Origin: Candidatus Micrarchaeota archaeon
GTDB lineage: Archaea > Micrarchaeota > Micrarchaeia > Norongarragalinales > SBBD01
Direction: 5' to 3'
DNA: 44,344 nucleotides
NCBI GenBank assembly: GCA_043807785.1
Contig: JAZDFO010000068.1
Coordinates: 1 to 44,344 of the forward strand
Shown here: positions 30,080-33,000 of the stretch, one piece after another
Position numbering within the stretch: position 1 is the stretch's first letter
Layout of the letters: each line of letters opens with the position of its first letter
The notes under the pieces: generated by a model
Told to the model about the DNA's origin: nothing
The model's input: only the letters and a program-made list of their open reading frames with translations
Database searches by the model: none
Translations under genes and position numbers: made by a program

Positions 30080-33000
30080 ATGGTCGAGGAAATAGAGCTC
30101 AAGGTCGCCGAGGCCATGCAGATAGACTACGGCAAGCGCATCGTGCGCATCGACTCGCAGGCGCGCAAGCTGTTGGCGCTCACTACCGGCGACATCATCG
30201 AGATTTCCAGCAAGAAGTCCACCGGCGCCATCGTGCTTCCCGCGCACCCGCAGGACGAGGGCGCCAATATTATCCGCATGGACGGCATCCTGCGCCAAAA
30301 CGTGGGAGTAGGCCTTGGCGACCGCGTGAAAATCAAGAAGGCCGACGCGAAAATCGCCAAGAAAATCGTGCTCGCCCCCCACCAGCCGTCGCGCTACGCG
30401 CCCGGGTTTGCCGATTTCGTGAAAAAGAACCTCATGGGCAAGCCGCTTGCCAAAGGCGACTCGCTTTCCGTCAACGTGTTCGGCACGAGCTTCCCGTTCG
30501 CGGTCGCGCAGACGGTGCCCAACGGCATAGTCCTGGCCAACGAGGGCACGGAAATGATCCTCAAGGAAGAGCCCGTCAAGGAACTCGGCCGCATTTCAAC
30601 CACTTCTTACGAGGACGTCGGCGGCCTTCGCGAGGACGTGCAGAAAATCCGGGAAATGGTCGAGCTGCCAATGCGCCACCCGGAGATTTTCGAGAGGCTG
30701 GGCATCGAGCCGCCCAAAGGAGTGCTCATCTACGGCCCGCCGGGCTGCGGGAAATGCGTTTCAGGCGCAACAGAAGTCCTTCTTGCCAGCGGTGAAATGG
30801 TGCAGGCAAAAAAGTTGTTCGAGAATGCAATGCTTGATGGAACGGTTGTCAAAGACGACGGGAAGGAAACGCTGGTTTCCGTTAGTTCGCTCCGCGTTCC
30901 CAGCTTAAACTCGCAACTGAAGTCGGAAATCGACAATGTGCTGTTTGCATACCGAGAGCGCTACGACGGAGATTTAATACGGTTAAAGACCAGGAGCGGG
31001 AGGGAAATCGCCCTTACGCCCGCCCATCCGATTCTTACGACTACTGAAAACGGCCCTGAGTTTGTGGCAGCAGGCAGCCTCGAGGTGGGCGGCTACATCG
31101 GGGTTCCTCGCGTTGTTCTTGGCCCGTTAATATCCAAATCGCTGCAGCCTCCGAGTCCCGAGTTCATTGTTATTGAAGAAACGCCCCTCAAGGTGACCGT
31201 AGCGGCAAGGCATAGCAAGCGTTCTGAAAACCTCGGGGGTTTCGTCCACGTCGGGCAGATACTCATTCCGCCTGCGCCTACGGCCGAGCTTGCCGAGTTC
31301 ATGGCTTATGTGGCAAGCGAGGGTACTTTCATGCCCGCTTACTACCACACGAGTTTCTGCAATTCCGAAGACCTTCACATAAACCGGTTCATGAAGCTCA
31401 CCGAACAGCTATTTGGAATCAGGCGCGTGGTAGAGAAGGACAGCAGCCCCGGCGTGAAAAAGATCCAGATTAAGAACAAGGCGCTCTCCGCCTACTTGTC
31501 CAACGTCCTTGGTTTTGAAAAGACTAGGGCAAGCGATGTTAGGGTGCCGAAATTCGTTTTTTCTGGCTCCGATGACGTGGCATTCGCGTTCCTCCGCGTC
31601 TACGCCGACTGCGAGGGACACGTTTCCTTGGACGTGCCGAGGCTTGAAATTGTCACGGCAAGCAGGGGCATGGCGGGAGACCTGCTGTACCTGTTTCTCC
31701 GGGCGGGAATCGCCGCCACGGTAACGACTAAAAAGCTGGCAGGGAAGGAATATTACCGCGTCTTGGTGATGGGGAAGGAAAATCTCGCGATATTCGAAAA
31801 TCGCGTAGGGCTGTTGAACGAAGGCAAGCGGGAGCGGCTGAGCGCTTGGACCCAATCCGGAAAGCGGTCGAACACCAACTTGGATGTCGTGCCCGTCGGC
31901 GATTTCTTGAGGATGAAAAGGATTCGCGAGGGAAAGACGCTCAGGGAATTCTACCTGGATCCGAAAAGCCGCGATTGCCGGTACGAAACCGGAGAGCGCC
32001 ATTGGAGCAGAACCCGTCTTGCAAAGCTGGGCGAAAAACTCGGGAGCGACAAAATCAAGGCGTGGGCGTCGTCAGATGTTTATTGGGACGAACTGGTTGA
32101 AATTAAGCGGGAACGCCCGGACGAGTCCGATCCCTACGTGTATGACTTGACGACCGAGAAAAACCACAATTTTGTAGCCGGCTATGGGGGCATTATAGCG
32201 CATAACACCCTGCTTGCCAAGGCCGTCGCCAACGAGAGCGAATCGCACTTCATCACCATCAACGGCCCGGAAATCGTCAGCAAGTTCGTCGGCGAGGCGG
32301 AGGAGAAGCTCCGCAACATCTTCTCTGAAGCCGAGGAGAACGCGCCTTCCATAATCTTCATCGACGAGCTCGACGCAATCGCCCCCAAGCGCGAAGAAGT
32401 CGTCGGCGAGGTCGAGAAGCGCATAGTCTCGCAGCTCCTCACGACCATGGACGGCCTCAAGTCCCGGGGTTCTGTCGTAGTTATCGCGGCTACGAATCGC
32501 CCGAATGCGATCGACCCCGCCCTGCGCCGCCCGGGCCGCTTCGACCGCGAAATCGAGATCGGCGTGCCGGACAAGAAGGGCCGCAAGGAAATCCTGCAAA
32601 TCCACACCCGAGGCATGCCTCTTGAGGACAACGTGTCGCTCGACCAGCTCTCGTCAGTCACGCACGGCTTTGTCGGCGCGGACCTCCAATCATTGTGCAA
32701 GGAAGCCGCCATGAAGGCCCTGCGCAGGATGCTGCCGGAGCTCAACCTCGAGGACGAGAAAATCCCGCAAATGATTCTTGAGAAGCTCAAGGTGTCGGGA
32801 AGCGATTTTAGCGAGGCGCTCAAGGAAGTATCTCCATCCGCGCTGCGCGAGGTAATGATTGAAATCCCAAACGTCAAGTGGGACCAAATCGGAGGCCTGG
32901 AAAACGCCAAGCAGGAGCTCAAGGAGGCAGTAGAGCTGCCATTGAAAAAGCCCGAGGCATTCACCAGGGTCGGCATCCGGCCCGTGCGCGGAATCCTGCT

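Follow-up and report, generated by a model that had tools for sequence, protein, structure and literature searches.

A contig of Candidatus Micrarchaeota archaeon (JAZDFO010000068.1 of assembly GCA_043807785.1; the whole stretch analysed, positions 1 to 44,344 of the forward strand, is called the window below) carries a gene for a CDC48-family AAA ATPase whose first ATPase domain, D1, is interrupted within its phosphate-binding loop (P-loop). We consider the interrupting segment, which parts the Walker A lysine of D1 from the threonine that follows it, to be an intein of class 1 in which a LAGLIDADG homing endonuclease with two motifs is nested, and we place the probability of this reading at roughly 0.9. 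Its sequence features indicate that the intein is probably splicing-competent and possibly still mobile. The anatomy of the element, the exact restoration of the host motif upon its removal and its patchy presence and absence among relatives were established directly, and its fold was established by prediction.

Anatomy of the intein and its host gene

According to the initial annotation, which was made from the sequence alone, a LAGLIDADG intein of 484 residues occupies positions 30755-32206 and separates the Walker A Lys of CDC48 D1 from the following Thr. The translation, the Pfam and TIGR profiles and the predicted fold agree on the first point. The plus-strand segment encodes exactly 484 residues without a stop, from Cys1 (CVSGATEV…) to a terminal His-Asn (GGIIAHN), and the junctions read …IYGPPGCGK^CVSGATEV… and …GYGGIIAHN^T, where ^ here and below marks the junction or the insertion point and the last T is Thr+1. 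The second point is borne out by the deletion of the segment, which restores a contiguous P-loop, GPPGCGK^TLLAKA, that parallels the uninterrupted D2 loop of the same protein. Profile searches matched the segment to Pfam Intein_splicing (E 1e-20), Pfam LAGLIDADG_3 (E 1.5e-14, residues 275-352), TIGR01445 intein_Nterm (E 5.9e-15; 56 bits, cut-off 24.5) and TIGR01443 intein_Cterm (E 2e-9; 37.4 bits, cut-off 15.6), and these scores are far beyond chance.

The segment is laid out as a splicing domain of the HINT type that is split into residues of about 1-120 and 440-484, a two-motif LAGLIDADG endonuclease (residues ~170-345) and a helical accessory region (residues ~350-440). In an alignment of the query with 13 homologues (14 sequences), seven positions do not vary (G82, T88, P380, Y463, D464, H483 and N484) and two more, H91 and G288, hardly do; therefore, all of the class-1 splicing residues are present. 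The splicing blocks that had been read from the translation (Cys1, TxxH, block F and the final His-Asn followed by Thr+1), as well as the two LAGLIDADG motifs, are found where the initial annotation put them (Table 1). All of the class-1 features that we tested were present, namely Cys1, TxxH, the block F Asp, the His-Asn end, Thr+1, an in-frame site and the HINT fold. Class-1 inteins need a Cys, Ser or Thr at +1, which Thr+1 supplies, and the Walker A relatives of this intein likewise end in HN^T or HN^S. Both LAGLIDADG motifs have Glu at the acidic position. A Glu at this position of motif 1 is the rule among the relatives, and the CEG of motif 2 also occurs in GTPase-hosted and HerA-like-hosted relatives; this recurrence of Glu at both positions in the nearest relatives suggests constraint, not decay.

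Table 1. Features of the CDC48 gene and its intein, in window coordinates.
Feature	Position	Strand	Evidence or remark
N-extein (CDC48_N, CDC48_2 and the start of D1 to the Walker A lysine, …YGPPGCGK)	30080..30754	+	CDC48_N E 5.6e-25, CDC48_2 E 5.8e-15; alternative in-frame GTG start at 30068
Intein, 484 residues, 53.9 kDa, isoelectric point 8.6	30755..32206	+	Profiles, alignment, model and fold search
Block A, Cys1 nucleophile	30755..30793	+	TIGR01445 covers intein residues 1-95; relatives start C[VI]xx[DE]T
Block B, TxxH motif (T88, H91; TPAH = residues 88-91)	30998..31039	+	T88 invariant, H91 nearly so
Linker between N-terminal splicing lobe and endonuclease (residues 125-166)	31127..31252	+	pLDDT < 50; predicted to be disordered or of uncertain fold
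LAGLIDADG motif 1 (residues 179-191, …YVASE189-G), putative catalytic acid Glu189	31289..31327	+	Aligns to LAEFLGYLIADGT of the TliVMA intein
LAGLIDADG motif 2 (residues 276-290, FLRVYADCE287GH), putative catalytic acid Glu287	31580..31624	+	Aligns to AFINAYIVCDGY of the TliVMA intein
Block F (residues 460-475; Y463 and D464 invariant)	32132..32179	+	Homologue alignment
Block G, GGIIAHN (residues 478-484), penultimate His483 and terminal Asn484	32186..32206	+	Both invariant; TIGR01443 match
Thr+1, the Walker A threonine	32207-32209	+	First codon of the C-extein
C-extein (Thr+1, remaining D1, whole D2, stop codon)	32207..33658	+	AAA and AAA_lid_3 domains

The host open reading frame (ORF) extends over 30068..33658 of the plus strand and is free of stops throughout; it encodes 1196 residues from a GTG and 1192 residues from the ATG at 30080, and the latter start (MVEEIEL…) is kept in the ortholog of a sister genome, G001. 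None of the 1192 codons is a stop. The initial annotation expected the gene to be mis-sized at 1192 residues by automatic procedures, and the public protein collection indeed holds the unspliced form at that length (P0002); the annotated gene model is thus overlong by 484 residues, and the mature protein would be a normal CDC48 of 708 residues. The protein scores 1076 bits against the CDC48 family model TIGR01243, the cut-off of which is 802.65, and the match falls into two pieces (model positions 1-227 and 218-723) that meet at the insertion point, the second of which covers 32183-33646 at 810 bits. The Pfam domains of the host, CDC48_N, CDC48_2, two AAA and two AAA_lid_3, follow the layout of the CDC48/VAT family of AAA ATPases, in which an N domain made of a double-psi barrel and a beta-clam precedes two AAA domains. 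A single CDC48 was detected in the source genome, a fragmented metagenome-assembled genome (MAG) of 1.18 Mb in 147 contigs that is 69% complete, and one was detected in each of the relatives searched. The insertion splits the Walker A loop of the sole CDC48 detected, and strong selection for efficient splicing is therefore to be expected. No Rfam family and no tRNA feature was found in the window.

An AlphaFold model of the intein, which was built on the homologue alignment, has a mean predicted local distance difference test score (pLDDT) of 84.7 and a predicted template modelling score (pTM) of 0.86; the linker alone is poorly defined, and residues 170-345 of the endonuclease are modelled at a pLDDT of about 80-96. 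A fold search with Foldseek placed the TliVMA intein (7QSS) first (E 2e-33, TM 0.70/0.78), followed by PI-PkoII, PI-PfuI, PhoVMA and PI-SceI. The splicing lobe matched the mini-inteins PhoCDC21-1, TvoVMA and Pho RadA with a root-mean-square deviation of about 2 Å over ~120 residues, and the nuclease lobe matched I-DmoI and I-Tsp061I. The TliVMA intein is also the best sequence match in the PDB (E 2e-27). Both inteins combine a HINT domain, a two-motif LAGLIDADG endonuclease and a helical accessory domain, and both are inserted into the P-loop of an ATPase. However, the two are only about 25% identical, the TliVMA host is the A subunit of a V-type ATPase (the VMA-b site) and not an AAA+ protein, the acidic residue of each LAGLIDADG motif is Asp in the TliVMA intein and Glu in the CDC48 intein, and the CDC48 intein carries the low-confidence linker as an extra ~40 residues. 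The endonuclease of TliVMA, from Thermococcus litoralis, is active in vitro, where it cuts the reconstituted homing site (Beyer et al., 2022; PMC8966425), and a related P-loop intein, PhoVMA, has lost its catalytic aspartates and has a degenerate endonuclease (PMC8966425).

If the chemistry of known inteins (reviewed in PMC10663303) is applied to this gene, the following course can be proposed. The 1192-residue precursor would be translated as a single chain in which the split P-loop precludes ATP binding by D1. An N-S acyl shift at Cys1, aided by Thr88 and His91 of block B and Asp464 of block F, would form a thioester, and attack on this thioester by Thr+1 would lead by trans-esterification to a branched intermediate. 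Cyclisation of Asn484 with the aid of His483 would then free the intein, and an O-N shift would leave a continuous P-loop in the spliced CDC48. The computed masses of the two products, 77.6 kDa for CDC48 and 53.9 kDa for the intein, are close to the ~78 and ~54 kDa estimated at the outset. An allele that lacks the intein would be cut by the endonuclease, whose LAGLIDADG helices carry Glu189 and Glu287, at the DNA encoding YGPPGCGK^TLLAKA, and repair off the occupied allele would copy the intein in, which is the process known as homing.

The empty site and the state of the endonuclease

The alignment to intein-free CDC48 orthologs, to which the initial annotation had pointed, strengthens the case for an insertion. 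The genome G001, of the same genus, encodes an uninterrupted CDC48 of 708 residues that aligns to the joined exteins without a gap, at 91% amino acid and 84% nucleotide identity, and its contiguous D1 loop, GPPGCGKT, is identical. The empty site reads …GGCTGCGGGAAG^ACGCTG… in the DNA of G001, or, over a longer stretch, …TACGGCCCGCCGGGCTGCGGGAAG^ACGCTGCTGGCG…, and the site reconstituted from the joined exteins of the source genome is CTCATCTACGGCCCGCCGGGCTGCGGGAAA^ACCCTGCTTGCCAAGGCC. The closest database ortholog, P0169, also has 708 residues and is 91% identical to the spliced protein, and the database orthologs bear the names Candidatus Micrarchaeota or Micrarchaeia, several of them 'Norongarragalinales'. 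Among 40 relatives of the same order, none has an interruption of the D1 P-loop, and all D1 regions run through it. Because the G001 ortholog is empty at the D1 site, the intein was either gained in the present lineage or lost precisely in the sister. Gain over loss, like splicing and endonuclease activity, is something that we infer. With its 91%-identical, intein-free counterpart in the sister, the intein-bearing gene offers a naturally matched pair of alleles on which homing-site recognition could be tested.

Several points weigh against an intein that both splices and moves. Splicing with Thr+1 and an endonuclease active site with two glutamates are plausible predictions. The nearest homologue is at most 37% identical, which is too distant for an analysis of nonsynonymous against synonymous substitution (dN/dS), and the endonuclease may already be inactive. 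The genome is 69% complete and leaves room for a second, intein-free copy of CDC48. The trace that co-conversion would leave is absent: the codon-by-codon divergence from the sister is uniform across the junction, and a co-conversion tract, which we sought in this comparison as a sign of recent homing, gave no signal. Finally, the GC content at third codon positions (GC3) is lower in the intein than in the exteins, which is no evidence of its date, being common to the inteins of this genome that were checked.

One alternative is that the intein splices and its endonuclease is inactive, the element being a fixed, immobile passenger that is kept since an imprecise loss would ruin an essential P-loop. 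We regard this as a serious possibility, at clearly less than even odds. Near-identical copies are absent from 5.8 billion proteins and 185,579 species genomes, and hence nothing points to an intein that is spreading now; Glu stands in the place of both catalytic acids, which in most homologues are Asp; the junction bears no co-conversion signature; and degenerate endonucleases are documented in P-loop inteins, PhoVMA being an example (PMC8966425). However, both LAGLIDADG motifs and the glycine after each acid are retained in an intact endonuclease fold that is confidently modelled, and Glu recurs at the acidic positions in independent relatives. Moreover, a sister without the intein is the pattern expected of an element that is still being gained and lost.

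Kinship with inteins of other Walker A loops

Relatives were sought with the intein region among 5.8 billion proteins and in 41 related genomes, with a junction query of 35 N-extein and 115 intein residues among 1.84 billion representatives (best 150 matches), and with a DNA pattern scan for Tyr-Gly-Pro-Pro-Gly-x-Gly-Lys-Cys over 185,579 species genomes, which requires the Tyr before GPPG and Cys1. No relative of more than 37% identity was found among the 5.8 billion proteins, the 41 related genomes, the matches listed in the representative search or the loci of the pattern scan, and the attempt to name a donor or sibling intein ended with no candidate above this value. The best database match to the intein region, P0003, lies in a small GTPase of the MMR_HSR1 type and is 30% identical, with the junctions GPPNGGK^C…HN^S. 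The closest full-length match in the related genomes, at 29% identity, is the intein in the ortholog of P0003 in G006, a genome of the same family (L015, G006:C7:254670-259079), where a LAGLIDADG intein of 470 residues is inserted in the small GTPase as GAPNAGK^C…HN^T.

Insertion after a Walker A lysine is common to most of these relatives. It was found in 9 of the 11 closest intein loci listed in the relatives' genomes, the hosts being GTPase, SMC, VirB11-type ATPase and V-ATPase A proteins, and the closest database hosts are GTPase, SMC, VirB4-like, TIP49, HerA-like and AAA proteins. An intein directly follows the Walker A lysine in a small single-AAA ATPase (P0032 / P0288), in TPR-AAA proteins (P0048, P0055 and P0072), in TIP49 (P0124) and in a HerA-like protein (P0160). 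The only other copy at the D1 GK^T site among the matches listed is P0021, a fragment of 496 residues on a 1.7-kb contig that comprises the CDC48 N domains and the start of D1 and reads GPPGCGK^CVAPDT…; its intein is 33% identical over the N-terminal 239 residues. The pattern scan yielded 69 loci, about 40 of which are in Micrarchaeota, and its hosts are TPR-AAA ATPases, bacterial AAA proteins (Bipolaricaulota and Fraserbacteria) and one CDC48 (L057), along with RuvB-like (Chloroflexota, Saccharibacteria) and DnaA-like (Armatimonadota) proteins that were assigned by flanking motifs alone. The highest identity in the full search belongs to L053, from Bipolaricaulota, at about 36-37%. No other YGPPGxGK^C in a CDC48 D1 was found in the 185,579 genomes of the scan.

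Some of the scanned loci are worth recording in their own right. The RuvB-like loci are L038, L039, L049, L063, L073, L076, L082 and L100, and the DnaA-like loci are L040, L047 and L070. In the roughly 40 Micrarchaeota species genomes represented by loci L041-L103, the Walker A lysine of TPR-AAA ATPases is very frequently followed by an intein, and these inteins are of two distinct types, in ORFs of ~860 and ~1050 residues.

A first tree placed the query within a group of seven inteins with 99/97 support, all of which follow a Walker A lysine (in AAA, TIP49, HerA-like and GTPase hosts), and the CDC48 inteins from other sites formed separate, well-supported clades. In a broader tree to which the species-genome sequences were added, the query forms one long, isolated branch of an unresolved polytomy, next to a 97/93 clade of L057, bacterial AAA and TPR-AAA inteins. 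The firm clade of P-loop inteins was therefore abandoned, its 99/97 support being gone once the sampling was broadened. Because broader sampling dissolved the first placement, we claim kinship with the Walker A inteins by sequence similarity and propose no resolved origin. Shared homing-site DNA, which might have linked these relatives, is not borne out by the synonymous sites, since the targets of the AAA-hosted relatives show no synonymous-site conservation beyond the amino acid motif; the GTPase target site matches the CDC48 site at 30 of 60 bases.

P-loops had been named as hot spots of intein insertion in the initial annotation, and the literature agrees. Walker A (GK^S/T) inteins have been described at MCM/CDC21-a, RFC-a and DnaB-b (Novikova et al., 2016; PMC4760082), and VMA-b is a further P-loop site (PMC8966425). 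In Anaeramoeba, a cluster of P-loop inteins led to the proposal of P-loop-to-P-loop transfer between non-homologous proteins (Gallot-Lavallée et al., 2023; PMC10710043). All of these inteins resemble the CDC48 intein in being inserted directly in the phosphate-binding loop; however, the CDC48 D1 domain is not among the host domains described, and identity to the present intein is at most 37%. An insertion of this kind is thus an ordinary and well-known habit of inteins, and the current understanding of these elements is unchanged. Relatives that are ~33-37% identical and lie in the same GPPGCGK^T loop of unrelated AAA proteins nevertheless provide a modest test case for the spread of inteins from P-loop to P-loop between genes.

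We only tentatively entertain, as a reading that is possible and rather less than probable, an ectopic colonisation by a homing-intein lineage that is specialised on AAA Walker A DNA (YGPPGCGK^T) and has crossed between non-orthologous NTPase genes and over the archaea-bacteria divide. The candidate hosts of such a lineage would be archaeal TPR-AAA proteins and CDC48 D2 and the ARC-like AAA proteins of Bipolaricaulota and Fraserbacteria; proteins of the GTPase and HerA types might be added to them. If this were true, the lineage would be a prokaryotic counterpart of the transfers proposed for Anaeramoeba, and the strictly conserved Cys at position -3 of the N-extein would mark either the target of the endonuclease or a CxxC redox trap.

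The second of these meanings amounts to a conditional redox switch, in which the intein would be more than a parasite: a disulfide between the N-extein Cys(-3) and Cys1 (C-G-K-C, a CxxC-like arrangement) would keep splicing from starting as long as conditions are not reducing, so that CDC48 activity is held back. The junction has the residues for it, GPPGCGK^C, with the codons C-G-K^C at window positions 30743-30757, and GPPGCGK^C…HN^T recurs in 11 of the 11 closest AAA-hosted relatives from the species genomes and in P0021, P0032, P0048, P0055 and P0072. The relatives with Cys(-3), which are ~30-37% identical (loci within L043-L098), span at least five host contexts. In intein-free Micrarchaeota CDC48 proteins, the residue here is mostly Thr, with Cys in 30 of the 117 D1 loops and in 3 of the 54 D2 loops. 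The MoaA intein of P. abyssi reportedly also has its N-extein Cys at -3. The splicing of that intein is reported to be under the control of a disulfide bond that links Cys1 to a Cys of the N-extein (PMC10663303). However, the intein-free sister already reads GPPGCGKT, so the Cys predates the intein in this lineage, and a preference of the endonuclease for GPPGCGK^T-encoding DNA would explain the association equally well. Cys(-3) is not a general feature of Walker A inteins, since position -3 is Thr, Ser or Gly in those that are less closely related (TIP49 P0124, CDC48 D2 P0052, HerA-like P0160 and GTPase P0003). We consider the redox switch unlikely, and the target preference of the endonuclease is the simplest reading of the Cys(-3) association because the empty site of the sister already has the Cys.

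Base composition and CDC48 inteins at other sites

The GC3 of the intein is 0.65, compared with 0.82 in the exteins. The same dip occurs in all eight other intein-bearing ORFs of the genome that were checked, where the inteins range from 0.58 to 0.74 and the exteins from 0.75 to 0.83. Because the dip is common to every other intein checked, low GC3 does not date the CDC48 intein, and we rejected it as a mark of recent arrival. The genome is unusually rich in inteins for its size, with Pfam Intein_splicing matches in 11 long ORFs; the intein-bearing contigs are C6, C14, C20, C56, C81, C84 (two ORFs), C95 (two ORFs) and C111 (loci L001-L010). An origin of the CDC48 intein from another intein within the genome is unsupported, the others being ~25-38% identical over partial lengths (E 1e-6 to 1e-11).

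The fragmented, incomplete state of the MAG and a base composition unlike that of the flanks might also suggest a dead, non-splicing insertion or an assembly chimera, in which case CDC48 would be either a pseudogene or a binning artefact of the metagenome, but this is highly improbable, as the insertion is exact and in frame and its removal gives a gap-free alignment to the sister that is unexpected of a chimera, the 1192 codons are stop-free with all splicing residues in place, the composition offset is shared with all other inteins of the genome that were checked, and a single CDC48 gene was detected, so that a non-splicing insertion should be strongly counter-selected.

The initial annotation left open whether this insertion-site allele is catalogued, and the answer is a mixed one: CDC48 inteins as such are known and the metagenome fragment P0021 carries the same site, and the literature searched contains no description of a CDC48 D1 Lys^Thr allele, just a passing mention of an Anaeramoeba CDC48 intein. 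For a possible allelic family at D1 GK^T, one other candidate member was found, the truncated P0021, against 0 of the 40 relatives and no CDC48 D1 in the genomes of the scan, which is restricted by its Tyr and Cys1 and would miss other variants. As far as searched, the D1 Lys^Thr allele is thus rare and undescribed, and it adds a rare insertion site (CDC48 D1, Walker A Lys^Thr) to the intein catalogue. InBase contains an entry 'Mka CDC48'. The Anaeramoeba CDC48 intein weakly resembles bacterial or archaeal inteins that occupy orthologous sites (PMC10710043), and a list of the top 15 hosts of archaeal inteins from 2015 does not include CDC48 (PMC4760082).

In a few of the 40 relatives, CDC48 has insertions elsewhere, which lie in D2 in G002, G030 and G037 and in D1 in G004 and G022. 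In G022 (G022:C2:27535-30744), an insertion of ~1.7 kb lies about 27 residues downstream of the D1 P-loop. In G004 (G004:C29:2298-5027), about 1.3 kb interrupts the D1 domain close to the Walker B region, around query residue 155, and CDC48 is divided between two ORFs (711 and 477 residues), which could reflect another insertion, perhaps with a frame break. Four Micrarchaeota CDC48 orthologs (P0180, P0217, P0249 and P0250) have, around residues 365-620 of these proteins, an insertion of ~130-250 residues at extein position ~368-372, in the lid region of D1; the best 25 of their 38-39 Pfam matches list no family, intein or other, apart from the AAA-type domains of the host.

Judging from public sequences, inteins at other sites of CDC48 are common in DPANN archaea, the group to which the Micrarchaeota belong. 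Public proteins of uncultured archaea have CDC48 inteins at at least seven sites, including GPPG^TGKT in D1 (P0034 and P0246), GPE(I/V)M^SK(F/W)VGE in D1 and D2, VGE^SE in D1 and D2, the Walker B region of D2, and the D2 P-loop at GK^T (P0052 and L057, the latter 33.5% identical to the D1 intein studied here). These inteins share the host family with the D1 Lys^Thr intein but fall in clades separate from it. The CDC48 gene at L057, an 8-kb locus of an uncultured archaeon (CAYJVT010000001.1), contains at least three inteins, at VGE^SE of D1, at GK^T of the D2 Walker A motif and before the D2 Walker B motif (…VAP^C…HN^CIIFFDEVD).

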